Shown one piece after another: positions 4,221 through 25,155 of a stretch of DNA of 47,695 bases (its first letter is position 1; each line of letters starts with the position of its first letter). Below the pieces are notes generated by a model. It had not been told where the DNA came from. It saw only the letters and a program-made list of their open reading frames with translations, and searched no databases. Made by a program: the position numbers and the translations under genes. This DNA comes from Kiritimatiellia bacterium (GTDB lineage Bacteria > Verrucomicrobiota > Kiritimatiellia > RFP12 > UBA3636): NCBI GenBank assembly GCA_017457625.1, contig JAFTHC010000072.1:1-47695 (forward strand). Direction: 5' to 3'.

Positions 4221-4272
4221 CCCCGACCGGAGATCCGGAGCCGGAACGCCCGGCTCCGGATTTCCGCTTTAC

Positions 4273-6168: not shown

Positions 6169-6223
6169 CGCGAGGTCCGTCTCCTTGTTTTCCCTTTTTC
6201 CCGATTCCACCTCCCAACGACCC

Positions 6224-7831: not shown

Positions 7832-7848
7832 GAAACGGCGTTCCGCGC

Positions 7849-9540: not shown

Positions 9541-9553
9541 AGGAACGCCCGGA

Positions 9554-10408
9554 ATGGATTTCTCCGCCGCCGACGCCGGTCTTCTGCTGCTGGTCTTCGC
9601 CGCCGCGTGCGCGCTGGCCGGCGCCGCGTTCGCCGCGGCGCGGGACCGCGCCGCCGAAAAGGCGCTGGCGGCCCGCGGCGGCGCCGGGGCGGTCCGCGCG
9701 GCGACCCGGGCCGCGGCGGGCGCGTTTTTCGCCGCGGCGCTGGCGACGGCGGGCGCGTCCCTGGCGGGCGCGTCCCTGGCCGGTTCCGCGGTCGCCGCGC
9801 TGGCGGCCGGCGCCGCGGCCGCGGCGGCGCCGGGCCTCTCCGCGCGCCGGCGCGCGGCCCGCGTGGAGTCGGATTTCGAGGCGCAGATCCTCGACCTGGC
9901 CACGGCCCTCTCGAACGGGCTGCGGGCGGGGCTGGCGCCCAACGCGGCGCTTGCGGCGGCGGCGGACCGCCTGCCGGATCCCATGTCCGGCGAACTGGAG
10001 GCCGTCCTGCGCGAGACGCGCCAGGCGGGCGTCCCCCTCCCCGAGGCCCTGGCGCGGCTCTACGGCCGCCACCCCTCCGAAGACCTCGCCCTGCTTGTCG
10101 GTTCCGTGTCGCTCACGCAGCAGACGGGCGGCAGTCTCGCGACGGTCCTCGCGCGGCTCGTCGAAACGATCCGGGAGCGGACCGAGTTCAAGCGGCGGCT
10201 CCGCGCGATGACGGAGCAGAGCCGGTTCGAGGCGGCCGCCATGGCCCTGGCGCCCGTGTTCGTTTTCTTGCTGCTCTTTTTCATCGACCGGCCGCTCATG
10301 TTGCCGCTCGTGACGACCGAGCAGGGCTGGTTCGCGCTGGCGGCCGACGCGGCGATGTCGGCCGTGGGGTTCGCCATCATTTCGAAAATCGGGAAAATCG
10401 AGGTGTAG
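9554..10408 (+). CDS. tadB: TadB-type platform protein (T2SS F family)
   Basis: T2SSF-like core LALLVGSVSLTQQTGGSLATVLARLVETIRERTEFKRRLRAMTEQSRFEA plus terminal TM segments. Very Ala-rich N-terminus. Confidence 0.85.
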   Translation: MDFSAADAGLLLLVFAAACALAGAAFAAARDRAAEKALAARGGAGAVRAATRAAAGAFFAAALATAGASLAGASLAGSAVAALAAGAAAAAAPGLSARRRAARVESDFEAQILDLATALSNGLRAGLAPNAALAAAADRLPDPMSGELEAVLRETRQAGVPLPEALARLYGRHPSEDLALLVGSVSLTQQTGGSLATVLARLVETIRERTEFKRRLRAMTEQSRFEAAAMALAPVFVFLLLFFIDRPLMLPLVTTEQGWFALAADAAMSAVGFAIISKIGKIEV

Positions 10409-10409
10409 G

Positions 10410-11309
10410 ATGGACGAAACGCGGACCACGCTCTCCTGCCTTCTCGTTTTCGCGGCCGTCGTCGGCTCCTATCTGGCCGCCGACGCGCTCGTGAAACTGC
10501 CGCGGCGGTCGTCTTCGCCCCTCTCCGGGGATCCGACCCTTCCGCCGCCGTATCGCCTCCTCCTTCCCCTGGTTCTCTGGGCGGGGCCGGGCATCGGCGC
10601 CCGCCTCGCGGAGGCGGCGCCGCGCCGCGCCGCCGCGCTGCGCTCGACGCTGGCCCTCGCGGGCGTCCGCCTCGGCCCGGAGCACGTGTTCGGCCTGCAG
10701 ACGGTTCTCGCCGCGGCCGGAGCCCTCGCGGGCGTGCTGCTTTTCGTCCTGACCGGCGACGCGGGGACCGGCGCGTTTTTCGCGGTCTTGGCCGCGCTCG
10801 CGGGCTGGATCCAGCCCGGGCTCGACCTGGAAGCGCGCGCGCGGCGGCGGCAGGAGGCGGTCGTGCGCGCCTTGCCGTTCGCCATCGATCTGATCGCCGC
10901 CGCGATGCGGGCCGGCGTCGACTTCGTCTCGGCCGTCCGCCACTACGTGCAGCTCGGCCTGGACAACCCGCTGGCGGCCGAATTCCGCACGCTGCTGCGC
11001 GAGATGACGGAGGCGAACGTCCCCCAGGCCGAGGCGCTGGACCGCATGGCGGCCCGCATCCGGTCGCCCGAGTTCCGCTCGTTCGTCGACGCCGTCGCGC
11101 ACGGGCTCGAGGTCGGCGCCTCGGTCGCGGACACCATGGCGGCGCAGGGCGAGGACCTGCGCCGCGCCCGGTTCGCCCTCGCGGAACGCAAGGCGGCCCG
11201 CGCGCCGAGTCTCATGATCTTCCCGCTGGCGCTGTTCATCCTGCCGGCGGTTTTCATCGTGGTTTTCTTCCCCGTCTGGTTGCGCTGGAAGGCGTCGCAC
11301 GGCGGATAA
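10410..11309 (+). CDS. tadC: TadC-type platform protein (T2SS F family)
   Basis: LPFAIDLIAAAMRAGVDFVSAV ... VDAVAHGLEVGASVADTMAAQGEDLRRARFALAERKAARAPSLMIFPLALFILPAVF. Starts 1 nt after the tadB stop. Confidence 0.85.
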   Translation: MDETRTTLSCLLVFAAVVGSYLAADALVKLPRRSSSPLSGDPTLPPPYRLLLPLVLWAGPGIGARLAEAAPRRAAALRSTLALAGVRLGPEHVFGLQTVLAAAGALAGVLLFVLTGDAGTGAFFAVLAALAGWIQPGLDLEARARRRQEAVVRALPFAIDLIAAAMRAGVDFVSAVRHYVQLGLDNPLAAEFRTLLREMTEANVPQAEALDRMAARIRSPEFRSFVDAVAHGLEVGASVADTMAAQGEDLRRARFALAERKAARAPSLMIFPLALFILPAVFIVVFFPVWLRWKASHGG

Positions 11310-11328
11310 CGGGAAAGGTTTCTCGCAC

Positions 11329-12813
11329 ATGTCCGCCTCAATCCGTTTCGTGTCTGGATCGCTCGCCGGGTCGTCGTTCGGCGTCGGGGACGCCGTCGGC
11401 ATCGGCCGGTCGCGCTCGTGCGCGGTGCGGCCGGCCGAGCCGGACGTGTCCGGCCATCACGCCGTCGTCTCCCCCGGGGAAAGCGGACTTCTGCTCGAGG
11501 TTTCCGGCCGGGCCGGCGCCGTCGTAGACGGCCGCGCGGTTTCCCCGGGCGCTTCCGTCGCCCTGGCGCCCGGCGCCCGCGTCCGCCTCGGCTCCTCGCT
11601 GGAGTTCGAAGTCGCGGGCGACGCTCCCGCTGCGGACGAGACCGCGGCGGGCGAGACCGCGGCGGACGAGACCGCGGCGGACGAGACCACGGCGCCGGAC
11701 GTGGATGACGGTGCGGACGAAACGCGCGCGCTGGAAACACAGGCGGCGACGCCTGCCGAGCTGGAGCGTCTCCGGGGCATGCACCAGGCGCGCCGCCGCC
11801 GATCCGTCCTGTTCCGGGTCGCCCTCGTCGCCGCGGCCTTTCTGGCGGCCCTCGGCGTTTCGCTTTGGCGCCAGCGCGCCCCGGAAACCGAACGGCTCCT
11901 GCATCCGCGCGGCGAAAAAGGGGACACCCTGCGGACGAAGGTCGAAATCGACGCGCCCGGACCGGACGTCGCGGAGCCGCCCTTCCTGTTCGTCTACGGC
12001 GCCAATGCGCCCGTATCCCGCTCGACCGACGGCGCCGGCCGCCGCTGGACGACGGTCGGCGGCCGGCTCCGGACGAGCCGCGGCCGGGACGTCGACTTTC
12101 CCGTCCGCGCCTGCGCGTTCGACGATCCGGAGGGTCTCCGCGCGCCGCGGGAAGAGCGCTTCCGCGCGTGGCTCGAAGCGGTCGCCCCCGAACGGAACTG
12201 GACGCTGCTGGGGGAAGAGCCGCCGGCCCGGCTGCGCTTCCTCGGCGGCGAGCGGGGGCTCGGCCCCGGCATTCCCTACCGCCAGTGGCGCTACAAGACC
12301 GGCGAAGGCGGCGTGCAGCGAGACGGCCGCGTCGCCTTCTTCCGGGCCGGCCGGCGCTGCTACGCGGTCTGCTGGGAGCTCGAAAGCTCCGTGTTCGCCC
12401 TGTCCCGGCGCGCCGGCGCGCCCGGCCGGGCGCTCGAAGAGCTGGTCGTCAGCCCGTCTTCGTTCGCGGAAGGCCGGTGGGAAGGCGCGCCGGAGTCGGG
12501 CCTTTCCCCGGACCCGGCCGCGACCGCGCGCTCGCCGTTGGAATGGGAGGAGACGGAAACGCGCCTGCGGGAAGCGCTCGTGGCGGCGGCGCTCGCGGGC
12601 GAACCGACGGCCGGCACGCAGGCGGCCGCTGGGCTCTCCGCCCTGCGCCGGGCCAAGGACGCGGCGTGGAAGGACTTCTGGGCGCGCCGCGTCGAAGCGG
12701 CGCACGATCCGCGCGCGGCCGCGGCCGTCGACGCGGAGGCCGTCGCCGCGTTCCGCGGCTCCGACGACCGCCGGCGCGACCTGCTCCGCGACAAGAACTG
12801 GTGGAAGAAATGA
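11329..12813 (+). CDS. FHA-domain single-pass membrane protein with large C-terminal (predicted periplasmic) domain
   Basis: FHA: VGIGRSRSCAVRPAEPDVSGHHAVVSP. An acidic DETAA repeat is followed by TM VLFRVALVAAAFLAALGVSLW and then ~310 aa with no recognisable family. Confidence 0.8.
   Translation: MSASIRFVSGSLAGSSFGVGDAVGIGRSRSCAVRPAEPDVSGHHAVVSPGESGLLLEVSGRAGAVVDGRAVSPGASVALAPGARVRLGSSLEFEVAGDAPAADETAAGETAADETAADETTAPDVDDGADETRALETQAATPAELERLRGMHQARRRRSVLFRVALVAAAFLAALGVSLWRQRAPETERLLHPRGEKGDTLRTKVEIDAPGPDVAEPPFLFVYGANAPVSRSTDGAGRRWTTVGGRLRTSRGRDVDFPVRACAFDDPEGLRAPREERFRAWLEAVAPERNWTLLGEEPPARLRFLGGERGLGPGIPYRQWRYKTGEGGVQRDGRVAFFRAGRRCYAVCWELESSVFALSRRAGAPGRALEELVVSPSSFAEGRWEGAPESGLSPDPAATARSPLEWEETETRLREALVAAALAGEPTAGTQAAAGLSALRRAKDAAWKDFWARRVEAAHDPRAAAAVDAEAVAAFRGSDDRRRDLLRDKNWWKK
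11635..11694 (+). repeat. in-frame 15-nt tandem repeat x4 (DETAA/GETAA/DETAA/DETTA)
   Basis: The sequence reads gacgagaccgcggcg, ggcgagaccgcggcg, gacgagaccgcggcg, gacgagaccacggcg. It lies between the FHA domain and the TM helix. Confidence 0.9.
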
Positions 12814-15218
12814 GAAAACCGGCTCCCGCGCTCGAACTTTCCAAGGACGGCCGCGTGCTGTTCCGCGCCGACGCCGCCGGTTTTCCCGGGACCCTGACGA
12901 TCGGCCGGAGCCGCGAATGCGACTGGTGCCTGGCCGGCGCCGATCCGTCCGCCAGCGGCCGCCACGCGGAGGTGACCCGGCGGCGGGGTTCGTTTTACGT
13001 CCGCGATCTCGGCAGCCGCAACGGCGTTCTCGCGGACGGCGTCCGCGTCGCCTCGTGCCGGCTCCGGCCCGGCCGCCCCGTCCGGATCGGCGGCTGCGAG
13101 CTGGCCGTCGTGGCGGGCGCCGCCGCCGCCGATTCGCCGGCGTTCCACCGGATCGAGCAGACCGGCGGCCCGGAAGCGGGGCGCGCGTTCGACCTGAAGC
13201 CCGGCCCGGGTCTCGCCGTCGGCTCCGATCCGGCCTGCGACGTGGTCTGCCCCGGGCCGTTCGTCTCCCGGCGGCATCTGCTGTTCCGGCTCGACGAACG
13301 AGGCGATCCGGTCGTCGAATGCACCGGCGCGCGCAACGGCGCGACCGTGAACGGCCTGCCGCTCCTCAAGACCCAGCAGCTCGCGGACGGCGATTCGATC
13401 GTGGCGGCCGACCGGGAGTTCCGCTTCCTGGACAAAAACGTCCCCCACGTCCGCGCCGGTCTGGGGCGCAAGGCCCTCGTGGCCGGCGCGACCCTCCTGC
13501 TCGCCCTCGCCGCGCGCCAGATCTGGCTCGCGGCCCGCCCCGACGCCGGCCGCCTCCTCGACCGGGCGCGCGCCGCCGCCGCCGCCGAATCGTTTTCCGA
13601 GGCGTTCGCGCTCGCGGACGAAGCGGCCGCCGCGCGTCGCGCGCCGGTCTACGAATCCGCGCGCCGCGCCCTTCTGGCCGACCTCTCGCGCTGGACCAAC
13701 GCGATCGTCCGGTGGCGGGGTCCCGGCGACTGCGCCCGGTCGATGCTCCGGGCCCGCCGGTGGAAGGCCGCCCCCGACTACCGCTCCGGCGCGTCCGACT
13801 GGGGGTGGAACACGACGACCTCCCCCGCCATGCAGGCCGAGGAGCGCCGGGCGTTCGACCTGCTCGACGCGTTCAACGGCCCCGGCGCCGGCCGGAACCT
13901 GCTTCGCGACGAGGCCGTCGCGGGCGCCGCGGCCGATCCCGTCCTGCGGGACCGGGCCGCGGCCGCGTTCGAGGCCGCGGCCGACCGGCTCGCGGCGGCG
14001 ACGGCCGCCGTGTGGCGGGCCGCCGCGCCGCCGCCGCCGCCGGACTGGTATCTGCGGCCGCTCGTCGAATCGGCCGCCGCCGTCGAAGACGCTCTCCGCG
14101 CCGCCGCCGCCGCCAACGCCGCGCTCGACGCCCGGTTCGGCGCGCTCCGGCTCCCCGACTGCCTCGCGGCGCCGCCCGACGGCGCAGCCCGGCTCGCGCG
14201 GGATCTGGCCGCGCTCGCCTCGCAGGACGCGCAAGCGCGCGAACGCGCCGAAGAGGACCGCCGGACCGGCCGGTATCCGGTCCTGCGCCGCAGCCGCCTG
14301 CTCGCCGACCGGATCGAGGCGGCCGGGCCGGTCGTCGGCCGCCTCGTCGCGGCCGAGGCCGTTTTCGCGTCCAATCTCGCCGCGGTCGCGCGTTGCGACG
14401 GCGCGGCGTTCGCGCCGGCGCTTCCGCTGCCGGACGAGGACGACGCGCGCGCCGTCCATCCGGCGCTGGCCGGCTACGCCGCTTCGCTCGCCTCGCTGCA
14501 AGCCGACCTCGACGGCTTCCGCGTCGAATGGGATTCCGCCGCCGGCCAGCTCGCGCGCTGGGACCTGGATCCGGCCCGGCCGGCGATCCCCGGCGACATG
14601 GCGTTCCTGTTTTCGCTGGAAAAACTCCCCGCCGCGCCGCCGCGCGGCGCGCCGCTTCCGCCGGCGGGCGCCGCCGCGCCCGCCGATCCCTACGACTTCG
14701 CGGTCGGGGCCCGGGACTTCCGGGATTTCCTGGACCCCTCGATCAAGACCCGGTTCGAAACGGCGGCGACCGCCTACGTGCGCGGGTCCAAGCTGGAATC
14801 GTCCTGGAGCGGACCCGTGCCGCCGGAGCTCGCGCGGCTCGGCGTGTCGTTCGCCATGCCGCTCGTGCGGCGGACGGCCAACCGGCTCCGCGTCCTGCGC
14901 GCCGCCGCCGCCGCGCTCGACGGGACGCCCGCCCGCGATCCCCGCGGCCTGCACGCGCTCGTCCGGACCGTCCCCGACGCGCCGGGCCGCCCGAATCTGG
15001 CCGCCGGGGCGCTGCGCCTGCACGGGCTCGTGTCCGCGGCCGCGGACAAGTGGCGGCAGGGGCCGCTCTCGGCCGCCGCCGCGCCCGCCGGGCGCGACGC
15101 CGCGCTCGCCGAGGCCGTCCGCGCCCTGCTGTTTCCGCCCGCCAAGGCCGCGGAGCGCGCCGCCGCCGCGGCCCGCATCGCCGAAAAACTCGCGGCCGAC
15201 CGGGAGGAGGCGCCGTGA
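12810..15218 (+). CDS. double-FHA single-pass membrane protein with ~570 aa Ala-rich C-terminal domain
   Basis: FHA1: TIGRSRECDWCLAGADPSASGRHAEVTRRRGSFYVRDLGSRNGVLADG. FHA2: LAVGSDPACDVVCPGPFVSRRHLLFRL...GARNGATVNG. TM: ALVAGATLLLALAARQIWLAA. ATGA overlap with the previous gene. Confidence 0.8.
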   Translation: MRKPAPALELSKDGRVLFRADAAGFPGTLTIGRSRECDWCLAGADPSASGRHAEVTRRRGSFYVRDLGSRNGVLADGVRVASCRLRPGRPVRIGGCELAVVAGAAAADSPAFHRIEQTGGPEAGRAFDLKPGPGLAVGSDPACDVVCPGPFVSRRHLLFRLDERGDPVVECTGARNGATVNGLPLLKTQQLADGDSIVAADREFRFLDKNVPHVRAGLGRKALVAGATLLLALAARQIWLAARPDAGRLLDRARAAAAAESFSEAFALADEAAAARRAPVYESARRALLADLSRWTNAIVRWRGPGDCARSMLRARRWKAAPDYRSGASDWGWNTTTSPAMQAEERRAFDLLDAFNGPGAGRNLLRDEAVAGAAADPVLRDRAAAAFEAAADRLAAATAAVWRAAAPPPPPDWYLRPLVESAAAVEDALRAAAAANAALDARFGALRLPDCLAAPPDGAARLARDLAALASQDAQARERAEEDRRTGRYPVLRRSRLLADRIEAAGPVVGRLVAAEAVFASNLAAVARCDGAAFAPALPLPDEDDARAVHPALAGYAASLASLQADLDGFRVEWDSAAGQLARWDLDPARPAIPGDMAFLFSLEKLPAAPPRGAPLPPAGAAAPADPYDFAVGARDFRDFLDPSIKTRFETAATAYVRGSKLESSWSGPVPPELARLGVSFAMPLVRRTANRLRVLRAAAAALDGTPARDPRGLHALVRTVPDAPGRPNLAAGALRLHGLVSAAADKWRQGPLSAAAAPAGRDAALAEAVRALLFPPAKAAERAAAAARIAEKLAADREEAP

Positions 15219-15397
15219 ACGACCGCGGATCGGTGCTCCTGGAATACGTCGTGCTCTGCTGCTTCGTCGGCACCGCGCTCATCCTGTTCATGCATGCGAA
15301 TTTCTACAACCCCGTCGACGGGTTCGTCGGCCTCGGCCGCGATCTCGTCGCGTTCTACCAACGCTTCCAGACCCTGCTGGCCCGCCCCGTCCCGTGA
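15215..15397 (+). CDS. small Flp/TadE-type prepilin-like protein (60 aa)
   Basis: GTG start in a GTGA overlap. VNDRG-SVLLEYVVLCCFVGTALILF matches the Flp G/xxxxEY processing motif followed by a hydrophobic helix. Confidence 0.55.
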   Translation: MNDRGSVLLEYVVLCCFVGTALILFMHANFYNPVDGFVGLGRDLVAFYQRFQTLLARPVP

Positions 15398-15410
15398 TTC
15401 CCGTTGTGAG

Positions 15411-15449
15411 AAACCCAACCCAACAAACAACCCAACCAAAGGAACAACC
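15411..15449 (+). promoter_or_regulatory. A/C-rich unstructured leader upstream of the flp pilin gene
   Basis: aaacccaacccaacaaacaacccaaccaaaggaacaacc is nearly G-free in a high-GC background and contains the only weak SD-like aagga. A similar tract precedes the lipoprotein gene at 3741. Confidence 0.35.
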
Positions 15450-15782
15450 ATGAAATTCAGGAAAACGCGCCTCGTCCGCACGCTCTGCCGCCTCTTCGGC
15501 GAAGAGAAAGGCCAGGCCATGATGGAATACGTCGTGCTCGCGGTCCTCATCGTCGCCGCCGCCGTCTTCGCCGTCGTCAAGTTCGGCGGAGCGATCGTCC
15601 GCCAGTTCGGCGTGGCCGAAAAAGGCGCCGTCGGAAACGAAGCGGGCGCCGTCGAACTCCAACAACAGAGCCAGGATACGGCCAATACGGACGTCACGCA
15701 AGGGCAAAACGCCAACGCAGCCTACAGCACGCTCTCGGAAGGCGGCGGCGAAGGCGGCGAAGGCGAAGGCTCTTCCGACTGA
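15450..15782 (+). CDS. flp: Flp-family pilin with extended acidic/Gly C-terminal tail
   Basis: GEEKG-QAMMEYVVLAVLIVAAAVFAVV matches G/xxxxEY plus a hydrophobic helix. The 110 aa length is long for Flp. Tail: SEGGGEGGEGEGSSD. Confidence 0.8.
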   Translation: MKFRKTRLVRTLCRLFGEEKGQAMMEYVVLAVLIVAAAVFAVVKFGGAIVRQFGVAEKGAVGNEAGAVELQQQSQDTANTDVTQGQNANAAYSTLSEGGGEGGEGEGSSD

Positions 15783-15796
15783 CGACCGGTTTTCCC

Positions 15797-16333
15797 GTGT
15801 CCCCGCTTCCCCTCGCCTTTTTCGCCGCGTGGCTCCTCGCGCTCTGCGTCTGCGATCTGCGCGCCCGCCGGCTGCCCAACGCGCTCACGCTGGGCGGCGC
15901 GGCGGTCGCGCTCGCCGCGCGGCTGGGCGCGGGGTGGCCGTCGGCCGCGCCGTTTCTGGACGGTCTGGCCGGCGGCGCGCTCGCGGCGCTGCTGCTGCTG
16001 CTGCCGTTTCTCGTCCGGGCGGCGGGCGCGGGGGACGTGAAGATGCTCTTCGCGGCCGGGTGCGCGCTCGGCCGCGGCCGGGCGGCGGGCTTTCTGCTGT
16101 TCGTTTCGCTCGCGGGGCTCGCGCTCGGACTCGTCTGGTTCCTGTCCGCCCGGTTCGACCGGCGGCGGATCCGGCATCTGGCGCGGACGCTCTTCGATCC
16201 GCGCTACGACCGCGCGGCCGGACGCGCGGCGCTGCCGCCGAAATCGGCGGAGGCGTGCCGCGTCCCGTTCGGCCTGGCCATCGCCGCCGGCGCGGCGCTC
16301 GAGCTGGCGCTGGAACCGGGAGGCGCCGCGTGA
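15797..16333 (+). CDS. cpaA: A24-family prepilin peptidase, CpaA/TadV type (no methyltransferase domain)
   Basis: Polytopic membrane protein with the two Asp motifs LCVCDLRARRLPN and AAGAGDVKMLFAAG. GTG start. Confidence 0.85.
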   Translation: MSPLPLAFFAAWLLALCVCDLRARRLPNALTLGGAAVALAARLGAGWPSAAPFLDGLAGGALAALLLLLPFLVRAAGAGDVKMLFAAGCALGRGRAAGFLLFVSLAGLALGLVWFLSARFDRRRIRHLARTLFDPRYDRAAGRAALPPKSAEACRVPFGLAIAAGAALELALEPGGAA

Positions 16334-16944
16334 AGAGGGACGGAACCGTCCTCATGGAGGCCGTGCTCTGCCTGCCGCTGCTCGTCGCGCTGTGCATGGG
16401 CGTGGTGGAGTTCACGCGCCTCTGGCAGGCGCGGTTCCTCGCGTTCCTCGCGGCCGACCACGCGGCGCGGGCGGCGCTCGTCCACAACCCGGCCGACTAT
16501 GCGGACGAAACGGGCGCGTTTCTCGAACGGGACGGCGTCGCCTGGGCGGCCGCCGTGGAAACGCTCGCCCCGCTCGCGCAACGCAGCGGCCTCGGGGCCG
16601 GCCTTTTTCCGGACCGGGCCCTCGCCGCGACCCGGACGCGCATCGTGCCGGAGAAGTCCGCCGAACGCGACGAAACCGTCGCGGTCACGGTCGAGTTCCT
16701 CGTGCCGCACCTGCTCGCGCCCGTGATTCCGCTTTCGGACGGACGCCCCGCCCCTTGGACGCTCTTTTCGCCCGCGGCCGTCACCGAAACCTGCGTCCTG
16801 CCCAAGCCGTGGTCGACGGAAGGTTTCCCGCGGCTTTCCGGCGCGGAACGCGACGTCCTGGTTCCGGTTCCGCCGGCCGCGCCGGAAGAGAGCGCCGACG
16901 ACGGTGCCGGGGAAGAATCCGGAGAAACGGAGGCGGCGTCGTGA
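16330..16944 (+). CDS. tadE: TadE-like pseudopilin
   Basis: GTGA overlap start. KRDG-TVLMEAVLCLPLLVALCMGVVEF matches the TadE N-terminal motif. Confidence 0.75.
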   Translation: MKRDGTVLMEAVLCLPLLVALCMGVVEFTRLWQARFLAFLAADHAARAALVHNPADYADETGAFLERDGVAWAAAVETLAPLAQRSGLGAGLFPDRALAATRTRIVPEKSAERDETVAVTVEFLVPHLLAPVIPLSDGRPAPWTLFSPAAVTETCVLPKPWSTEGFPRLSGAERDVLVPVPPAAPEESADDGAGEESGETEAAS

Positions 16945-19574
16945 GCCTCGCGCGCCCGTTTCTCGGCTCGATCCGGCGTCTTGCGCGCGACGAAAACGGC
17001 GCGGCTCTCGCGTTCACGCTCGGCGCCGTACTCTTCCTCTACGTGTTCTGCGGCGGCGCCTACATGGCCGGCGAAACGATCCGCCGCAAGGCCGAACTGC
17101 AGAACGCCTGCGACGCGGCCGCCTACTCCGCGTCCGTCGTCCAGGCCGACGTCCTTTCACGCATGGCCGTCCTCAACCGCGCCATGTCCTGGTCCTACGT
17201 CCAGATGACGCGCGCCCAGATGGACGCCATCGTCTACCGCTGGCTCGACCTGACGCGGTGGCGCTTCCGGCAGGACCTCGCGGGCATCGGGCACAGGGAC
17301 TTCGTTTCGTCGCTTTTTGCCGGCAAGAACGCCGGATATTCGCACATCGGCCACACGCCGATCGGATGTAATTTTGGCGTCGGCGGCATCGGCTGCCGCG
17401 AAGGTCTTCACGACGACAAGGATTACGGCTTTTCCCACTACATCGGCATGGGTCCGCGCAAGGACGAACTGTTCCGGGTCCGCGTCGGCTACCGCGCCGG
17501 CACGTATCTGGTCTGGAACGGGAGCGGCGACTTCGACTACGAGGTCGACGGCGAAACCATCGCGCGCGGCGTGATCGGGCAGCTGGAGAAAGGCGGCGGC
17601 GGCGAGGGCGTTCCCGGCATCGCGTCCGTCGTGGCCGCGAACCGCCTGGCCGTGTCCCTGTGCAACGGGATGCTCGCCTGGGAAAACCGGCAGATGGGTC
17701 CGGCGATCCAGGAAACGGCGCGGCTCGCGCTGCTTCTCAACCTGCCGCGCGACGCGAACGGCGACGTGCCGGCCGGCCTCGCGGACGACTACGCGGCGGT
17801 CATCGTGCCGGGCGTTTCGCCCGCGCCGCCCGAGTACCGGGATGCCGACGCGGACGCGGACGGCGCCGTCGCGTCCGGCTACTTCCGCGCACTGCACAAC
17901 ACGGAAGAAGACGAACTGCGGTTTCTCGCGATGGCGGACGGCGTTCCGCCGGAGCGCGCCGGGGACCTGCGCCTCGTGGACTACTTTTCGCCGTCGTCGG
18001 GGAACGGGGGGCGGCGCCTTGCGGGCGGTCTCGACCAGTGGTTCGTCCGGTGCGCCGTCGACGAACCGGAACAAGACCGGCTGGACGTCGTCCGGAAATG
18101 GTCCGCCCCCGCCCCCTACATCGCCCGCGGCTACAAAAACGCCAATTACGGCGAAGGCGCCAGCGCCGGCTCCCTCGCGCAGAAGGCGACGGGGCTCGGC
18201 GTCGACATCCACCGGGGCAACTACGTCTTCGACGGAACGGACGTTGCCGGCTTGATCGGCGCAATCGGGAAAAACGGATTTCCCAAGCTCTCCAAATTCC
18301 TTGCAGACAAACCTTCCTCCCCATGGAAGAAGGCATTTTGGCGCGCAGCCCGATTATTGATGCAGAAAATCGACGATGCGGTTTCGCCCTTCCGGAGCGT
18401 TGCCGATTCCTGGCGCAAAGCGGTCCTCAACGTTGTCGGCCGAATCGCTTCGACGGACGTGGAACCATCCTGCATCAACGTCCGGTCGCGTTTTCCCGAC
18501 CAGTGCGAAACGCCGAATGAAACCTACGGGCTCGTGTCCGAATACGAGTGGGCGACGGCGAACTGGATCTGCTGCTGGCTCAACGTCAAATACTGCAAGT
18601 TCTGCATCCACGTCCCGCTCCCCATCGCGGCCATCCACGGCGGCGCGGCCGGCGACGGCTACGGGTCGTCCGGGCAGCCGCTTTCATGGCTCGGGGAAGA
18701 GATCAAGGCGATCAAGAAAGGCGGCGGCCATTCCCGGAGCGCCTACCGCTCCACGTTCATCGGATTGGACGGCGAATTTCCGACGGCGTGCGGCCATCCC
18801 GGCGGCGTGAACGGCCGGGGCGCCAACATGCTTCTCAAGGGCTACGTCCGGATCTACGGCGACGACCGCCGTCTCCTCGTGCCGGCGGCCCGGGACCTCT
18901 ACGTCGGCGAACCGGCCAAACCGTGGATTCTCGGCGACGAATACTTCGCCGGCGGCGGCACGACCGTCGTGGGCCTGGCGCGCAAGACCCGCAACGTCTT
19001 CGAGACGTTTCTCGGACCGATCGCCCCGCCCGGGCTCTACGGCGCCTTCGAGCCGGACACGAACGCCGCGCCCCGCCTCGTCGCCTTCTCCGCCGCGCGG
19101 GCCGGATACGCGCGGCGGACCGGGGACGGACTGGCGGACGGAGCCGATTCCGTCAACGCGGGCAACCCGCCTTCGCCGCGCTGGGAAACCGTCGCGGGAC
19201 ACGAGGCGGACGGGCCCGCCCCGCGTCTGCCCGACGGCATGAACGCGGCGCTCCGCGCCCGTCTGGCCGCCGCGCGCATCGGCTGCGTGTGCGGCCCTGC
19301 CTCGGCCGCCGCGCTGCGGCACGGCTGGAACCTCTCGCAGACCGACTGGAACGGCCAGCTTCTCCCCCTGCGCCACGCCTTCGCCGGAACGGACGACGCC
19401 GGCGACTGGGAATGGGACGACGGCGCCGCCCTGCGGCGGCTTCTCGAGCGCCTCGTCTCGGCCGACGCCGTCTGGAAAAGCCTCGGCGAGGGCGACGGCG
19501 GCTCCCTGGAAAGCATCCTCGGAACGAATCCCGACACCGTTTTCAACCTTCTCCTGAAACGCCGAATCCTCTAG
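16941..19574 (+). CDS. tadG: large TadG-like pilus-associated protein (877 aa)
   Basis: GTGA overlap start. N-terminus ARDENGAALAFTLGAVLFLYVFCGGAYMAGETIRRKAELQNACDAAAYSASV resembles the TadG/Tad N-terminal domain. Cys cluster: CINVRSRFPDQCE...WICCWLNVKYCKFCIH. Confidence 0.75.
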   Translation: MSLARPFLGSIRRLARDENGAALAFTLGAVLFLYVFCGGAYMAGETIRRKAELQNACDAAAYSASVVQADVLSRMAVLNRAMSWSYVQMTRAQMDAIVYRWLDLTRWRFRQDLAGIGHRDFVSSLFAGKNAGYSHIGHTPIGCNFGVGGIGCREGLHDDKDYGFSHYIGMGPRKDELFRVRVGYRAGTYLVWNGSGDFDYEVDGETIARGVIGQLEKGGGGEGVPGIASVVAANRLAVSLCNGMLAWENRQMGPAIQETARLALLLNLPRDANGDVPAGLADDYAAVIVPGVSPAPPEYRDADADADGAVASGYFRALHNTEEDELRFLAMADGVPPERAGDLRLVDYFSPSSGNGGRRLAGGLDQWFVRCAVDEPEQDRLDVVRKWSAPAPYIARGYKNANYGEGASAGSLAQKATGLGVDIHRGNYVFDGTDVAGLIGAIGKNGFPKLSKFLADKPSSPWKKAFWRAARLLMQKIDDAVSPFRSVADSWRKAVLNVVGRIASTDVEPSCINVRSRFPDQCETPNETYGLVSEYEWATANWICCWLNVKYCKFCIHVPLPIAAIHGGAAGDGYGSSGQPLSWLGEEIKAIKKGGGHSRSAYRSTFIGLDGEFPTACGHPGGVNGRGANMLLKGYVRIYGDDRRLLVPAARDLYVGEPAKPWILGDEYFAGGGTTVVGLARKTRNVFETFLGPIAPPGLYGAFEPDTNAAPRLVAFSAARAGYARRTGDGLADGADSVNAGNPPSPRWETVAGHEADGPAPRLPDGMNAALRARLAAARIGCVCGPASAAALRHGWNLSQTDWNGQLLPLRHAFAGTDDAGDWEWDDGAALRRLLERLVSADAVWKSLGEGDGGSLESILGTNPDTVFNLLLKRRIL

Positions 19575-19591
19575 AACGCCACGCCACCACG

Positions 19592-20632
19592 ATGAAACGA
19601 ACGATACCGATCCTGCTCTGCGCCGCGGGCGCGCTGGCCGCCGCCCGGGCGGCCGAGCCGCCGGCCGCGCCGGACGCCGCGCCGGACACCGCGCTCGCCG
19701 GCCGCGGCACGCTGGTCGCGGCCTGGGCGGATTCCTTCCGCCGCACGGCGGCGACGAACGCCGCCGCGCTGCCCAACGCCTTCGAGCCCGCCGCCGCCGC
19801 CCGCTGGGCGGACGGCCCGGCCCGCGAACTCACGGCCGCGCTGCAGGCCGACTTTTTCGCGGGCGCCCACGTGCTGCTGGGCCCGTTCGGCGAAACGGAC
19901 GCGCTCGTCGCCTTCCACAACCCGTTCTGGGACGCGCTGCTCTTCGTGGAAACGGGCGGCGGATATCTTCCCGGATCGCCGGACAAGGCCGGTTCGTTCC
20001 GGCCCGGAAAGGTCGTCCGTTTCCGCTGGATCGACGGCGAAACGTTCCGCGGATCGACCGTGGCCCCGGGCGGACCGTTTGCGCTCGGCGTCCTCCGCGC
20101 GCAGGCGGCCACGGTGCGCCGCTTCGACGAACGGTTCCCCGACGCGGACGGATCCGCGTTTCTGGACGACGCCGCGCTCGGCGTCGCGCCCGCGGACGGC
20201 GACGCGGCCGCGTGGACCCGCATCCTGGACGGCCCCGCCGTGCGGCTCCGGGCCGGCCTGGCGCTTGCGACCAACCGCATGGACCGCGCCGTCGCCGGAC
20301 GCTGCGAAGAGCTGCTCCGCCGCGGTTCCGCGCCGGCGCTGCGGCGCCATTTCGCGGACGGCGCGCACGCGCGTTTCCGGGATTCGTTCCTCCGCCTGCC
20401 GCCCGCCATGCGCGAGGGGTTCTCGCTCTACGGCTACGTCCCGGGCGGGGACGGCTCTCTCTTCCTGTTCGTGAACGAAGACGTCCCGCGCCTGTTCGCG
20501 ACCGTTTCGATGCCGCGCGGCCGCACGCGCGACGCCGCAAGCGGCGAACCGGCGTTCGAGTGGTATGACCTGCGCGAAGCGGCACGCTACCTGAAGGCCG
20601 TGCGCGAAGCCGGAAAGGAGGAACCGCAATGA
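19592..20632 (+). CDS. secreted protein, unknown function (translationally coupled to the lipase gene)
   Basis: Signal peptide MKRTIPILLCAAGALAAARA. No family recognised. Its stop overlaps the lipase start (ATGA at 20629-20632). Confidence 0.7.
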   Translation: MKRTIPILLCAAGALAAARAAEPPAAPDAAPDTALAGRGTLVAAWADSFRRTAATNAAALPNAFEPAAAARWADGPARELTAALQADFFAGAHVLLGPFGETDALVAFHNPFWDALLFVETGGGYLPGSPDKAGSFRPGKVVRFRWIDGETFRGSTVAPGGPFALGVLRAQAATVRRFDERFPDADGSAFLDDAALGVAPADGDAAAWTRILDGPAVRLRAGLALATNRMDRAVAGRCEELLRRGSAPALRRHFADGAHARFRDSFLRLPPAMREGFSLYGYVPGGDGSLFLFVNEDVPRLFATVSMPRGRTRDAASGEPAFEWYDLREAARYLKAVREAGKEEPQ

Positions 20633-22692
20633 GAAAGAGCGTGTTCCACGCGGCGGCGGCCGCCGCCGCGCTGCTCCTCGCGATCCCCGCGGAAGGCTCC
20701 CTCTCGAACGTCTTCAGCGGTCTGGCGGGCAACGCGGTCTCGGAATTCTTCTACGATCCGCCGAGCGGCGTCGTCAAAGTCCCGTGGTTCGGTTCCTGCC
20801 CCGATTTCGAATCGAACCACTCGGCCGCCGAACGGCAGCGCGTCGCGGACATGGGGGTTCTCGCCGAAGCCGCCTACCAGGACGGGAAGAAACCTCCCGC
20901 CGGCTACTCGGCCCTTTCGCCCAAGGAGGCCGCGAAACTGGCCGGACCGGGCTTTTCCGTAGCCGAGGACGGGACCGTCTCCCTGTCGGGCGTCAAGTGG
21001 GCGTCCGGCTTCGACGCGGTGCTCTACCGCAACGACCGGACGGGGGAAATCACGGTCGCGTTCCGCGGCACGGAGCTCACGTCTCCCGGCGACATCGCGA
21101 CGGACATCGCCCAAATCGGCACCGGCTCCGTTCCGGCCCAATACAAGGCCGCCGCGGAGCTGCTCCGCAACGTCCTGGCGGGCACGGACGGCCCCGTCTC
21201 CGTCGCCGGCCATTCGCTCGGCGGCGGCCTTGCGCAATACGCGGTCGCCGCCAATTCGCCCGGGTCCGCGTCGCGGCTCTCCGGCTACACGTTCAACTCC
21301 GCCGGCCTCTCCCACGCCGTCGTGGATTCCCTGCCCGACGCCGCCCGCGAGTCCGCCGCCGCGCGGATGACCAACGTCCGCAACGACGGCGACAGCGTGA
21401 GTTTCTTCGGCTGCCACCTCGGCACGATGTATGACGTCCCGAACGACGGCTTTTTCGCCCACTCCGTTTCGATCCTGAACCGCAATCTCGTCGGCAAGGA
21501 CCAGCTGCCGGCGGAAATCGCGGACGCCGCGGGCGGCAACGGCTTTGCGGGGATTCTCGACAACCTGCGCGACGGGTTCGCGGCGATGTTCCCGGACGGT
21601 CTTTCCGGCGAACTGGCCGCCGCCGCCGAGGACTGGCTCCGCGCCTGGGCGGAACGCGAAGCGGCGCGTCTGGCCGGAAAACTCGACGAAGCGCTCGAGC
21701 GCGAGCTGGCGCGGCTCGAGAAACGGTTTCTCGGGCTCCTGCCCGAAGGCCCGGCCCGCGAGGCCGGCTCCCGCCTCGTCTCCGACCTGAAGGCCGGCAA
21801 CTGGGACGCGCTCGCCGGCGACGCCCTGGACGTCGGCCTGGGCGCCGGCGAAACCGCGCTCCGCGACTCGCTCGAGCGCCTCGGCATCCACGGCGACGAG
21901 CAGGACGCCATCGTGAAAGGCGCGCGGGACGCCGTCGACGCGGCCATCGCGGGCGGCGATCCCGTTTCGGCGATCGGCGACGCGGCGCGGGGCTACGTCG
22001 ACGGAAAAATCCGGGAACGGTTCGGGGACGACGTCGCCGACAAGTTCGGAAAACTCTGGGACGCCGCCTTGGGCGAAGGCGATCCGTGGGTCGCACTCGG
22101 CGATTTCGTCGACTCGGTCGAGGTCTGGGCGTTCGACAAGTTCGAAGAGAAGGTCGAAAACTTCCTCCGCGGCGAGCTGGACGGCCTGTTCGCCCGCCAT
22201 CCCGAGTTGACGGAAATGTTCGGCCTCTCGACGGACAAGCTCATGGCTCTCGGCGGCAACGTCTGGGGCATCGTGACGGGCGACGGGACGCTGGCGGAAA
22301 AACTCGGCGCCGTCGCGGATCTGGTCGCCGACACGCTCGCCGAAGCGTTCGAAACCTTCGTCGACTGGGCCATCGGAAAGGCCCTCGAACAACTTGACGC
22401 CATCGTGTCGAAAATCTCGGAAGCCGTCGAAAAAGCCGTGCAGAAGATACTCGACGGCGTCAACCGGCTCGTCGACAAGGCCAACGAGCTCGTCGACAGG
22501 TGGAACGCCGCCTGCGACTCCTACCTGAAAAAGCTCGACAAGATCCTCGCCGGCGCCGGGCGCGTGGCCACGGTCCTCGGCGGCGAGGACTGGGCCGAAA
22601 TCTCCGAAGGCATCCAAAACGCGCGCCGGAACGTCCGGCTCCTCCACTTGGATCGGATTCCGCACGTCGCCATCCCGCCCGCGACCCCGTGA
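20629..22692 (+). CDS. secreted class-3-lipase-like alpha/beta hydrolase with ~400 aa helical C-terminal extension
   Basis: Signal peptide AAAALLLAIPAEG. ITVAFRGTE ... VSVAGHSLGGGLAQYA, with the nucleophile Ser codon at 21214-21216. Candidate triad residues are Asp in VRNDGDSVSFF and His in FFAHSVS. The C-terminal half is Asp/Glu/Ala/Leu-rich and helical. Confidence 0.8.
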   Translation: MRKSVFHAAAAAAALLLAIPAEGSLSNVFSGLAGNAVSEFFYDPPSGVVKVPWFGSCPDFESNHSAAERQRVADMGVLAEAAYQDGKKPPAGYSALSPKEAAKLAGPGFSVAEDGTVSLSGVKWASGFDAVLYRNDRTGEITVAFRGTELTSPGDIATDIAQIGTGSVPAQYKAAAELLRNVLAGTDGPVSVAGHSLGGGLAQYAVAANSPGSASRLSGYTFNSAGLSHAVVDSLPDAARESAAARMTNVRNDGDSVSFFGCHLGTMYDVPNDGFFAHSVSILNRNLVGKDQLPAEIADAAGGNGFAGILDNLRDGFAAMFPDGLSGELAAAAEDWLRAWAEREAARLAGKLDEALERELARLEKRFLGLLPEGPAREAGSRLVSDLKAGNWDALAGDALDVGLGAGETALRDSLERLGIHGDEQDAIVKGARDAVDAAIAGGDPVSAIGDAARGYVDGKIRERFGDDVADKFGKLWDAALGEGDPWVALGDFVDSVEVWAFDKFEEKVENFLRGELDGLFARHPELTEMFGLSTDKLMALGGNVWGIVTGDGTLAEKLGAVADLVADTLAEAFETFVDWAIGKALEQLDAIVSKISEAVEKAVQKILDGVNRLVDKANELVDRWNAACDSYLKKLDKILAGAGRVATVLGGEDWAEISEGIQNARRNVRLLHLDRIPHVAIPPATP

Positions 22693-23423
22693 GAACGACA
22701 GCGCCGGCCCCGGCCGCGCGCGGCCGCAGAGAAGGAACCGTCCTCATGGAGACGGTTCTCGTCCTGCCCGTCTACCTGGCGCTTCTCGGCGGACTGTTCA
22801 TCGTCGGGGACGTGCTGGTCGGGCGGCTGCGGCTTTCTTCGATGGACCGGCTCGCCGCGTGGCGCGGCGATTCGCCGCACCAGGCGTCCGTCCGGGACGT
22901 CTACGCCGGCCGGATCGCCGATCCGGACGACCCGGGAAGCGGGGCGTCCATGATCCTGGACGAGGCGCGCACGTGGGCGCTCGACCCGAGCGCCGATCCG
23001 GACGGGACCGCGAGCGGCGGCGGCTCCGCCGCCGTCGAACTGGCCGGCAACGGCTGGGCCGATCTGGTCTACGGCCGCGCGGACGCGGAAGTGGACGTCC
23101 CGTTCTGGGTCGGGGCGGCCAACGCGCCCCTTCTGTCCGATCCGGACGCGGCCGGACGCTTCCGGTTCCAGTCCAGGGCGGTCCTGTATCCGGGCATGGC
23201 CGGCGGCGAGTCGGGCCGCGTTTTTCTCGTGCGCCGGCGAACCGCGCCGGATCCGGCCGTTCCGCGGCGGGACGCGACCGCCGCCGCCTTGGCCACGACC
23301 TGGGCGGCCGTCGTCGCCGATCCGCTGCCCGGCCTGCGGACGGCGCCGGCCGTCGCCTCGCCGGCGGGCGACGGCGCGGGAACTTACGTGCGGCATCCCG
23401 TGGCCGTCGCGTTGGGAGAATGA
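22689..23423 (+). CDS. second TadE-like pseudopilin
   Basis: GTGA overlap start. RREG-TVLMETVLVLPVYLALLGGLFIV has the same G-TVLME motif as the 16330 gene. Confidence 0.7.
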   Translation: MRTTAPAPAARGRREGTVLMETVLVLPVYLALLGGLFIVGDVLVGRLRLSSMDRLAAWRGDSPHQASVRDVYAGRIADPDDPGSGASMILDEARTWALDPSADPDGTASGGGSAAVELAGNGWADLVYGRADAEVDVPFWVGAANAPLLSDPDAAGRFRFQSRAVLYPGMAGGESGRVFLVRRRTAPDPAVPRRDATAAALATTWAAVVADPLPGLRTAPAVASPAGDGAGTYVRHPVAVALGE

Positions 23424-23427
23424 CGCG

Positions 23428-23901
23428 ATGAAGGTTCCGTTTTTCGCAGTCGCCCTCGCGGCCGCGGCGGCCGTGGCCGCCGACTTCCGGATGCCGCCGT
23501 CGTTCCGGCCGCTCGCTTCGGACGACACCGGCCGGACCTGGAAGGAAACGGGCGCGATCGCGCAGCCCTTCGCGGCGGCGCTCGCGACCGTCCGCGCCGC
23601 GTTCGACGCGCAGGGATGGACCGTCGAGCGCGAATTCGCTCCAGAAGGGGGCGCCGATTCTTCGCGCATGTTCCAGTGCGCGTCCGGCGATGCCGGCATC
23701 CTGCTCCTCGCCCTCCGCGATTCGCCCACGAACACCTTCGTTTCCTGGGGATTCCTCTCGCGCGGAGGGGAGAATGGTTCCCACGCGGAGGGCGCGGAGG
23801 TCGAATCTCACGCGGAGGGCGCGGAGTCCGCGGAGGGGGCGGAGAGTGAAGGTAGGGACGGCTCCACGAGCCGTCCGAAACCGGAAGAAGAAAAGGAATG
23901 A
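23428..23901 (+). CDS. small secreted protein with acidic repeat tail
   Basis: Signal peptide MKVPFFAVALAAAAAVAA, a ~95 aa globular part, then the tail SHAEGAEVESHAEGAESAEGAESEG (DNA repeat about 23781-23850). Its stop overlaps the radical SAM start. Confidence 0.65.
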   Translation: MKVPFFAVALAAAAAVAADFRMPPSFRPLASDDTGRTWKETGAIAQPFAAALATVRAAFDAQGWTVEREFAPEGGADSSRMFQCASGDAGILLLALRDSPTNTFVSWGFLSRGGENGSHAEGAEVESHAEGAESAEGAESEGRDGSTSRPKPEEEKE

Positions 23902-25139
23902 ACGACATGTCCATCACCCTCTCCCTCACGCACGACTGCAACCTGCGCTGCTCCTACTGCTACGCGGGACGGAAGAGCCATCGCGCGATGACTCGCGCGA
24001 CGATGCAGCGGGCGCTCGAATGGGCGGTCGGCTACCACAAGGCCCATGCGCTCGGGCGGAATTTCGTCCTCGGCTTCTTCGGCGGCGAGCCGCTGCTGGA
24101 ATGGGATCTTCTGCGCGAGGCGGACGCGCTGGCGGAACGACTCTGCCGCGAGGCCGGTCTGGAACTGCGCCGGACGCTCACGACGAACGGAACGCTGCTG
24201 GACGAAGAGAAGGCGCGCTGGCTGACGGAACGCCACTACACGATCGGTCTTTCGCTGGACGGCCCGCCGGAGCGCCATGACCGGTTCCGCCGGCACGCCG
24301 ACGGGAGCGGATCCTACGCCGAGGCCGTCCGCGCCGTCCGGCTGCTTTCGCCGTATCGGGAGCCGTGTCCGGAATTCAACTGCGTCGTCCGGCCCGATTC
24401 GCTCGAATCCGTGCCGGAGGCCGTCCGGCACCTGGCGGCGCTGGCCGGCTTCCCGATCGCGCTCAATCCCGATTTCACGGCCGCATGGAAGCCATCCGAC
24501 CGCGAGCCCTTCCGCCGGGCCTACGGCGAGGTGGCCGATTTCTGCGTTTCCGAATGGCGCGAGGGGAGGCCTCTGCACGTCACGTGGATCGACGCCAAGT
24601 TGAAGACGCTCCTGATGGACGGCTACCGCGAACAGGACCGGTGCTGCCCGGTGAGGAGAGAGCTGGCCGCTGCGCCGTCGGGCAACCTGTATCCCTGCCC
24701 GAACCTCGTGGGCGAGGACGACCGCGCCGACCTGCGGCTTGGCGACGTGTTCTCGGGGATTGACGCGGAGGCGCTCCGCAAGGCGCTTTCGCGGTGCGGT
24801 TCGTCCCTGCCGGCCTGCAAGTCGTGTCCCGTCGCCCCGCGCTGCCAGAACTGGTGCGGATGCGCCAACTGGTTCTCGACCGGCCGCACGGACGCCGTCT
24901 CGCCGTTCCAGTGCTTTTACGAAAAGACGACGATCGAACTCGCGGACCGGGTCGCCGAGACCCTTCTCGCAGAGAAGTGCGAACCGTTCCTCGCCCACTT
25001 CGGCGAGTTCATCCGGGTCGCCGCGCCGGAAGTCGCCGCCGAAGTCTCGGGCGCCGCCCGAAGCCCGTCCGCCTCCCTCCCTCAACCCCAACCCCGCGGG
25101 TCGCGGGCGGACGCGGCGGATGCCGCGCCCGCCACGTGA
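23898..25139 (+). CDS. radical SAM enzyme with SPASM-type C-terminal Cys clusters (anSME-like)
   Basis: CNLRCSYC (CX3CX2C) at 23937-23960. GGEPLL. C-terminal clusters: CCPVRRELAAAPSGNLYPCP and CKSCPVAPRCQNWCGC. Confidence 0.9.
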   Translation: MNDMSITLSLTHDCNLRCSYCYAGRKSHRAMTRATMQRALEWAVGYHKAHALGRNFVLGFFGGEPLLEWDLLREADALAERLCREAGLELRRTLTTNGTLLDEEKARWLTERHYTIGLSLDGPPERHDRFRRHADGSGSYAEAVRAVRLLSPYREPCPEFNCVVRPDSLESVPEAVRHLAALAGFPIALNPDFTAAWKPSDREPFRRAYGEVADFCVSEWREGRPLHVTWIDAKLKTLLMDGYREQDRCCPVRRELAAAPSGNLYPCPNLVGEDDRADLRLGDVFSGIDAEALRKALSRCGSSLPACKSCPVAPRCQNWCGCANWFSTGRTDAVSPFQCFYEKTTIELADRVAETLLAEKCEPFLAHFGEFIRVAAPEVAAEVSGAARSPSASLPQPQPRGSRADAADAAPAT

Positions 25140-25155
25140 CCCGCCCAATAACGCC

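Follow-up and report, generated by a model that had tools for sequence, protein, structure and literature searches.

We have studied a gene for a radical S-adenosylmethionine (SAM) enzyme of the SPASM type that lies inside a pilus operon of a Kiritimatiellia bacterium. The DNA analyzed, hereafter the window, is 47,695 nucleotides long and corresponds to contig C38 of the metagenome-assembled genome (MAG) G000, which has a size of 2.57 Mb, a completeness of 87% and a GC content of ∼70%. The enzyme (P0002) is encoded directly behind a small secreted protein (P0001) and ahead of the second ATPase of the operon. A prediction made earlier from the sequence of the window proposed that the enzyme modifies a component of the pilus machine, possibly a pilin, P0001 or the lipase. 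Its assignment to the peptide and protein maturases has stood, but the comparative evidence presented here does not favor these substrates. It points instead to a cassette of enzyme and small tagged partner proteins that is optional in this family of operons, and that has probably lost its partners in the window. The features of the locus, all on the forward (+) strand, are as follows.

23428-23901, +: P0001, secreted protein of 157 aa (codon-position GC, codon model, orthologs)
23428-23765, +: signal peptide and conserved α+β core of P0001, residues 1-113 (orthologs; pLDDT of the core 75-89 in the AlphaFold2 (AF2) model)
23766-23901, +: acidic tail of P0001, predicted to be disordered (pLDDT 32-44; absent from P0001 orthologs)
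23898-25139 (413 aa) or 23907-25139 (410 aa), +: radical SAM/SPASM enzyme P0002 (PF04055, NCBIfam, AF2, Foldseek)
23937-23960, +: CX3CX2C radical SAM motif CNLRCSYC, residues 14-21 (invariant in an alignment of 32 family sequences)
24642-24914, +: SPASM region with eight family-invariant cysteines (C249, C267, C307, C310, C316, C320, C322, C339)
25056-25139, +: C-terminal extension of P0002 outside the family, residues 387-413, disordered (pLDDT <50; the family alignment ends near residue 372)
25096-25144, +: very stable hairpin between cistrons, immediately ahead of ATPase 2 (folding energy of the RNA −46.6 kcal/mol, z = −5.2)
25156-26220, +: ATPase 2, VirB11/TadA-like, 354 aa (T2SSE 181 bits)

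The Window Encodes an Intact Radical SAM/SPASM Enzyme

P0002 belongs to the radical SAM/SPASM maturases of peptides or proteins; it has sites for three clusters and is intact. The match to PF04055 (64.3 bits against a cut-off of 29.5) places it in the radical SAM superfamily, and the CNLRCSYC motif noted in the original prediction is found exactly where it was reported. The SPASM signature is complete, comprising C250-x11-G262-x4-C267 and C307-x2-C310-x5-C316-x3-C320, plus C322 and C339. C250 alone of the signature cysteines varies in the 32-sequence alignment, the invariant cysteine of that pair being C249; the eight invariant cysteines would be enough for two auxiliary [4Fe-4S] clusters. All 50 residues that are invariant among these 32 diverse members, the cluster cysteines included, are intact in the window enzyme.

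Ranked by score, the best NCBIfam models are PapB (172 bits), nif11-type (131 bits), CXXX-repeat (129 bits) and SCIFF (128 bits); the anaerobic sulfatase-maturating enzyme (anSME) scores only 92 bits, and all of these are below their cut-offs. The PapB model NF047865 has a cut-off of 340 bits, yet the alignment is full-length (positions 4-327 of 330); that to the SCIFF model TIGR03974 (cut-off 425 bits) begins at model position 99. The nearest solved structure by sequence is CteB (98.6 bits), the alignment starting at its residue 99, indicating that the N-terminal recognition domain (RiPP recognition element, RRE, where RiPP denotes a peptide made by the ribosome and modified after translation) is missing from P0002. 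The AF2 model has a pLDDT of 90.5, and Foldseek matches it to CteB with TM 0.73 and to anSMEcpe with TM 0.69-0.80.

The best matches in sequence and fold are PapB (freyrasin) and CteB (SCIFF/thermocellin; PDB 5WGG/5WHY). These have three [4Fe-4S] cluster sites, as does P0002, and act on a ribosomal product encoded beside the enzyme. P0002 differs from them in scoring about half of the family cut-offs or less and in having no N-terminal RRE domain. The partners of its family, described below, are moreover exported or membrane proteins that are presumably recognized via a tag ahead of the signal peptide, and no cysteine-rich core peptide is encoded in the window. Nor is there in the window a CX3D/E-repeat precursor adjacent to the enzyme, P0001 having a single cysteine. 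A SCIFF system would combine a score above the cut-off with an N-terminal RRE and a 45-aa precursor with six cysteines; P0002 falls well short of the score and lacks the N-terminal domain.

The SPASM architecture noted originally is confirmed, and the enzyme is not a sulfatase maturase. P0002 resembles anSMEcpe (PDB 4K36-4K39; TIGR03942) in its RRE-less SPASM architecture of ∼370 aa and in its fold, and anSME acts on whole proteins prior to export. It differs in its score with TIGR03942, which is 91.6 bits (86 bits in the genome search) against a cut-off of 349.45, and in its conserved neighbors. The earlier failure to find a sulfatase gene in the window extends to the genome; there are no matches to the sulfatase family PF00884 in the 87%-complete G000, and the genome search gave no match above the cut-off of the anSME model. 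The identity of P0002 as a sulfatase maturase was rejected on these grounds. Placement among the SPASM subfamilies, which had been suggested as a check, puts P0002 in an uncurated family nearest to PapB and CteB.

The start of the gene was thought to overlap the stop codon of P0001. The ATGA junction of the P0001 stop with an upstream ATG of the enzyme gene is real as sequence (23898-23901), but a second ATG at 23907 is the likelier start, judging by the family alignment and by 410-aa gene calls on the near-identical contigs L105-L108. Use of this start would give a 5-nt spacer after P0001 in place of the overlap. At the other end of the gene, the last 19 codons (residues LPQPQPRGSRADAADAAPAT) run through the conserved hairpin element ahead of ATPase 2. 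LPQPQPRGSRADAADAAPAT is the counterpart of the C terminus of the P0001 homolog (P0126) in L102, a related operon without the enzyme.

The window enzyme is still under purifying selection. Compared with the orthologous enzyme of a sister operon (L109), dN/dS = 0.17, the corresponding value for ATPase 2 being 0.14. Taking a third operon (L001) as outgroup, there are 8 unique amino-acid changes in the window enzyme and 10 in that of L109, at dS = 0.24. The low dN/dS and the lack of surplus changes on the window branch thus do not point to decay of the gene. The same arrangement as in the window was seen on at least 10 contigs, derived from several samples, and is not an assembly artefact.

Enzymes of This Family Are Paired with Small Tagged Proteins

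Among 8000 candidates scored, 974 are relatives of P0002 at E ≤ 0.001, most of them ∼370 aa in length. The family is uncurated and RRE-less, and lies nearest to the thioether-forming PapB and CteB. Its gene neighborhoods were examined at 80 loci from genomes and at further loci from metagenomes. Immediately upstream of the enzyme there is usually a small open reading frame (ORF) encoding a secreted protein, a lipoprotein or a protein with a twin-arginine translocation (TAT) signal, and some loci have two or three tandem copies of this partner. The sole conserved feature of the partners is a short tag ahead of the signal peptide, M-[KR]-[IVL]-x-P...P-x-Y-P. The strict motif is present in the upstream slot at 34 of 87 loci, compared with 6.5% at random positions. 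No Pfam or NCBIfam model matches the partner proteins. Clustering of the neighbors by all-against-all BLAST recovered only a clade with a different, PHxH-containing partner, and missed the tagged family because its members are short and of low complexity.

In the phylogenetic tree, the enzymes of the window and L001 form a pair (support 100) that is nested in a Kiritimatiellia subclade (support 96-100). The other members of this clade have lipoprotein partners with SYS/EKLR tags and no Tad genes, and the partners of relatives in the same genus carry the tag MPTPPxSYS..EKLRLALLALA.

In three genomes of the genus (G006, G009 and G008) the cassette opens with a tagged partner of 232-245 aa, partner-1 (L092 61-759, L093 2730-3428 and L094 6065-6802). 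It contains a cysteine-rich patch with three PapA-like CX3[DE] motifs, followed by THAENAE repeats. Next comes another tagged protein, a lipoprotein that has a LysM domain. The CX3[DE] patch is present only in partner-1 of these three genomes. At another Kiritimatiellia locus (L084 8369-11185), a 378-aa protein with an FGE-sulfatase domain is translationally coupled to a tagged partner and the enzyme. A tandem array of five secreted paralogs, each of ∼240 aa, is situated directly upstream of a tagged LysM partner and the enzyme at L087 3917-7684.

The sister clade of the enzyme (support 100) is drawn from Chlorobi, Desulfobulbaceae, Bacteroidota, Planctomycetota and archaea, and always adjoins a protein of ∼130 aa with the motif GG[IML][RK]xPH[LF]H..G[ED][IV]Y.LN..QW..FS and no Pfam or NCBIfam match (L030, L037-L039, L043, L046, L048, L053, L055, L056, L060, L061, L065-L068 and L077). 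This PHxH partner is absent from G000.

The Enzyme Is Probably an Optional Addition to the Operon

The enzyme gene is embedded in a pilus operon, as had been proposed. The gene map, made with a codon model trained on G000 and with Pfam, reveals a co-directional Tad/Kil-like operon at 5452-30857 (+), with the following genes.

Start, +, in order: CpaB-SAF, secretin, CpaF ATPase 1, TadB, TadC, two FHA proteins, two Flp pilins (codon model, Pfam)
Middle, +, in order: prepilin peptidase, TadE, TadG-like protein of 877 aa, unknown protein of 346 aa, lipase/Mbeg1-like protein of 683 aa, TadE-like protein of 225 aa
End, +, in order: P0001 (157 aa), radical SAM enzyme, ATPase 2 (VirB11/TadA-like), unknown protein of 352 aa, PP2C phosphatase, Ser/Thr kinase

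Pfam matches along 5452-19574 cover the Tad core set (CpaB, secretin, CpaF, TadB/C, Flp, prepilin peptidase and TadE/G), those for secretin, Flp and the TadG-like protein scoring under the Pfam cut-offs. In Myxococcus, the Kil system is a pilus of the Tad-like type whose tip complexes can be exchanged (PMC8460266, PMC12075869). The operon of the window likewise encodes a Tad-like apparatus with FHA proteins and several minor pilins, and has an accessory region that varies; it differs in also encoding ATPase 2, a PP2C phosphatase and a kinase.

ATPase 2 was chosen as the marker for this operon family; orthologs 70-93% identical are present in G003, G004, G050, G055, L001 and L109. The enzyme is found in three operon variants only, i.e., the window type, L109 and L001. 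Within the same genus, G003 has the whole syntenic operon, with an ATPase 2 that is 88% identical, and no enzyme. A contig of G004 (ATPase 2 91% identical) is syntenic over the stretch covered and also has no enzyme. G050 and G055, of the same order, have ATPase 2 orthologs 74% and 70% identical, respectively, plus homologs of P0001, and neither genome contains a match to the enzyme at E ≤ 1e-30. Three independent contigs (L102-L104), 95% identical to the window on the left flank, are likewise syntenic over the stretches covered and without the enzyme. Its absence from all of these contradicts the idea that it is a conserved part of the machine. As for the proposed test of co-occurrence between the subfamily and Tad loci, only the three related variants combine the two, and the other members of the Kiritimatiellia clade lack Tad genes.

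Counts of cysteine and of CX3[DE] motifs in the shared operon proteins do not separate operons with the enzyme from those without. A literature search found no paper tying radical SAM enzymes to Tad pili, in agreement with the lack of precedent remarked on originally, and a term search of the paper on Kil tips (PMC12075869) found no mention of 'radical SAM.' The link of the enzyme to the Tad system is weak, and the enzyme is probably an optional add-on and not a built-in component of the pilus. It is possible that enzyme and partner together constitute an accessory module of this pilus family.

The segment between the gene for the 352-aa protein and ATPase 2 differs among operons (L089 8961-15798 of G003; L001 1370-15877). 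Its contents include large Flp-headed proteins (572 and 614 aa), TPR, LRR and ankyrin proteins, and an ATPase_2/DUF234 protein, and it behaves as a cargo or accessory bay.

Tagged Partners Accompany the Enzyme in Sister Operons

The core of the enzyme in L109 is 92% identical in amino acid sequence to that of the window, and its ATPase 2 is 93% identical. In L109, a homolog of the 352-aa protein is followed by a 121-aa gene and a 277-aa gene with a tail of HAE repeats; next come two tagged genes (105 and 95 aa), then the enzyme with a hairpin copy on either side, and finally ATPase 2. In L001/L101 the enzyme is 69% identical and belongs to the same operon, with the P0001 homolog located 9.8 kb upstream of it. 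A 92-aa tagged gene overlaps the enzyme stop codon in L001, with a 141-aa paralog nearby. The four small partners of L109 and L001 have an invariant tag, W-x-V-E-P-P-K...L-R..L-I-V. The presence of tagged partners beside the enzyme in both operons indicates that the cassette logic of the family holds inside the Tad operon too. The enzyme of L109 and L001 is thus paired with dedicated small tagged membrane proteins, and not with a pilin, the lipase or P0001.

No tagged partner was found in the window or the rest of G000 by tblastn, hidden Markov model (HMM) or regular-expression searches, which covered the xYP and VEPPK tags, the SYS/EKLR leaders and the partners encoded in L001 and L109. The gene for the cognate substrate would thus appear to be missing from this assembly. 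An 'LGGxVP'-type core motif, seen by eye in the partners, is not enriched among the window proteins.

There may nevertheless be traces of such genes. Window 23778-23836 matches the HAE tail of the 277-aa gene of L109, and window 23875-23894, within the tail of P0001, is a 20-bp match (E = 0.01) to 5′ codons 4-10 of the 95-aa partner. The two matches are in the same order ahead of the enzyme in the window and in L109. From these short matches we infer that the P0001 tail could be the collapsed remnant of an L109-like region.

The boundaries of the rearrangement are observed directly in L102. This contig matches window 19000-23765 at 94.9%; a filler of 138 bp then stands in the place of window 23766-25081, and homology resumes at 25082 at 86%. 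The 1316-bp segment specific to the window comprises the P0001 tail, its stop codon and residues 1-394 of the enzyme, and the start of the tail coincides exactly with the left breakpoint. The filler is not homologous to this segment. Over window 19000-30882, the identity of L102 is 95% to the left of 23765, then 86%, then 78% to the right of 25082. This step down at the indel suggests a recombination junction there.

The hairpin element is present twice in L109, at 2931-2990 and ∼4225-4290, each copy being followed by ATGTCC; L109 2931-2990 is an 88% match to window 25089-25145. One of the two copies precedes the enzyme gene of L109, which is therefore flanked by direct repeats that could mediate its gain or loss. 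The copy in L102 has the 3′ end typical of that found upstream of the enzyme, which fits loss of the enzyme via recombination between the flanking repeats. The element may also be a signal for processing or stability of mRNA.

The Tail of P0001 Contains a Repeat Dispersed through the Genome

The 157-aa signal-peptide protein with a SHAEGAE tail, to which attention had been drawn, is a real coding frame. Its GC content by codon position (0.69/0.58/0.80) is more typical than that of the antisense ORF at 22521-23735, and the codon model trained on G000 also prefers P0001 over that ORF. Orthologs of the core occur in operons or genomes without the enzyme (G003, G004, G050, G055, L101 and L102), those of the enzyme-less operons having no acidic tail. 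Since the core is kept whether or not the enzyme is there, P0001 is a constant protein of the operon. Neither Pfam nor NCBIfam has a match for it, and comparison of the core fold with the PDB gave no significant match (the best being Flpp3, E = 0.056). P0001 has no pairwise similarity to the upstream proteins of close relatives of the enzyme.

The tail has SHAEGAE repeats, with pattern sites at 23782-23799 and 23809-23826 and a period-9 array at 23811-23844. These are not special to P0001. The DNA pattern CACGCRGAGNNCGCRGAG has 141 sites in 61 clusters in G000, compared with 0.04 expected. Predicted genes contain 77 of these sites in frame, for the most part within linkers and C-terminal tails; another 58 sites are intergenic. 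The repeat has a periodicity of 9 bp and reads SHAE[NSG]AE. Among 12 genomes of the genus, 7 are rich in it; in the others searched it is rare or missing, and the genomes searched outside the genus have almost none. Of the 7 repeat-rich genomes, 5 have an ortholog of the enzyme, compared with none of the 5 that are repeat-poor. Suggestive as this correlation is, kinship and the abundance of the repeat confound it.

Discussion

We put at about 0.6 the probability that the enzyme belongs to a cassette with tagged partners that is optional in a Kil-like Tad operon, and that it has been orphaned in the window by loss of those partners. As its canonical substrates the family would have small exported or membrane proteins, encoded by one to three genes next to the enzyme and sharing only a short tag at the extreme N terminus, before the signal or transmembrane segment. 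In one gut lineage of Kiritimatiellae, a cassette of tagged protein and enzyme would have become lodged in the variable accessory segment of the operon, between the tip-pilin/cargo block and ATPase 2. In the lineage of the window the partner genes would then have been lost, leaving short remnants and bringing the enzyme directly behind P0001. The acidic tail of P0001 would be a chimeric scar of recombination or deletion containing the genome-wide repeat. As for the chemistry, cleavage of SAM would be expected to generate a 5′-deoxyadenosyl radical that abstracts hydrogen from the substrate, leading to a crosslink, most likely a thioether or carbon-carbon bond.

Several points weigh against this interpretation. 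With an assembly only 87% complete, a partner gene could sit in unassembled DNA. The match to the partner remnant is short, and HAE matches are expected anywhere in G000. The lack of relaxed selection argues for a substrate that the enzyme retains in this lineage, except if the deletion happened very recently. Recurrence of the cassette in three variants of one operon family means that a real functional tie to the pilus may exist. Finally, the chemistry is demonstrated for no member of the family.

One alternative is a recently orphaned gene without function, in which decay has not yet begun. This would account for the missing partner genes, and for the repeated loss of the gene from sister operons. 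Window-type contigs are all near-identical, so that the rearrangement may indeed be recent. Against this stand the full set of family-invariant residues and the count of unique changes, which shows no excess on the window branch at a dS of 0.24, and we regard such hitch-hiking as unlikely. Continued selection would be natural if the enzyme had been co-opted to modify P0001 through its acquired SHAEGAE tail, or many repeat-carrying proteins of the genus. Tail and enzyme lie inside the same 1.3-kb indel and are translationally coupled, P0001 orthologs of enzyme-less operons have no tail, partner-1 of the orthologous enzyme in G006, G008 and G009 also bears THAENAE repeats, and within the genus orthologs of the enzyme were found only in repeat-rich genomes (5 of 7). 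However, the repeat behaves as a dispersed DNA element, with many of its sites intergenic. G002 and G010 are rich in it yet have no enzyme ortholog, and kinship confounds the correlation. The partners in other phyla have the N-terminal tag in common, not HAE repeats; there is no HAE repeat in L001 or its P0001 homolog; and the tail contains neither the conserved part of the tag nor a cysteine for thioether chemistry. Taken together, we find this proposal quite unlikely.

Modification of a shared structural part or cargo of the pilus would be in keeping with the position of the enzyme in the operon, with its occurrence in three variants and with the selection that persists despite the missing partner genes; the candidates are the Flp pilins, the TadE/G pseudopilins, the 352-aa protein and the lipase-like cargo. 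Yet the same components serve in operons that have no enzyme, no pattern of cysteine or CX3[DE] distinguishes the two kinds of operon, and the partner genes that survive encode dedicated small tagged proteins. We consider it very unlikely. An anSME, generating formylglycine and located in the operon by chance, would have the same length, RRE-less architecture and fold. This is effectively refuted by the score with TIGR03942, by the lack of any PF00884 sulfatase in G000 and by conserved family neighbors that are small tagged proteins and not sulfatases.

If the cassette reading is correct, the striking pairing of a radical SAM enzyme with a pilus operon would reflect an optional and partly eroded cassette, and not a new step in pilus maturation. 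The window adds a data point for a widespread and uncharacterized RRE-less SPASM family with exported tagged partners. The operons L109 and L001 provide clean pairs of enzyme and putative substrate for biochemistry, and the window lineage would be a natural variant in which the partner is deleted and the enzyme is nevertheless still conserved. Should the small membrane proteins of the cassette work with the Kil-like pilus, this would be a new accessory function. Were the enzyme to modify the HAE tail, this would be the first case of a radical SAM enzyme modifying part of a Tad/Kil-type machine; modification of HAE repeats in general would make the dispersed repeat a portable modification site in dozens of proteins of the genus.

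Two systems invite comparison with the proposed logic of the family. DAG-RiPPs are RiPP-lipoprotein hybrids that are matured via the lipoprotein pathway by MNIO enzymes (PMC13056109). The canonical partners of our family would follow a similar course, with cytoplasmic modification of a precursor that carries a signal peptide or lipobox, followed by export and processing. The difference is that the enzyme here is a radical SAM enzyme and not an MNIO, and that the window has no such precursor. In methanogens, the SPASM enzyme CrpC carries out protein-scale ranthionine crosslinking of CrpA (PMC13692751). Here too a SPASM radical SAM enzyme acts on an adjacent protein rather than a short peptide. 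CrpC, however, has an RRE, and its substrate is cysteine-rich and not an exported tagged protein.

Other radical SAM genes were seen in these genomes. Contig C123 of G000 (11003-12016) carries a second, unrelated SPASM-type radical SAM ORF of 338 aa with the motif CNLHCPHC, and a paralog 37% identical to the window enzyme is present in G002 and G009.

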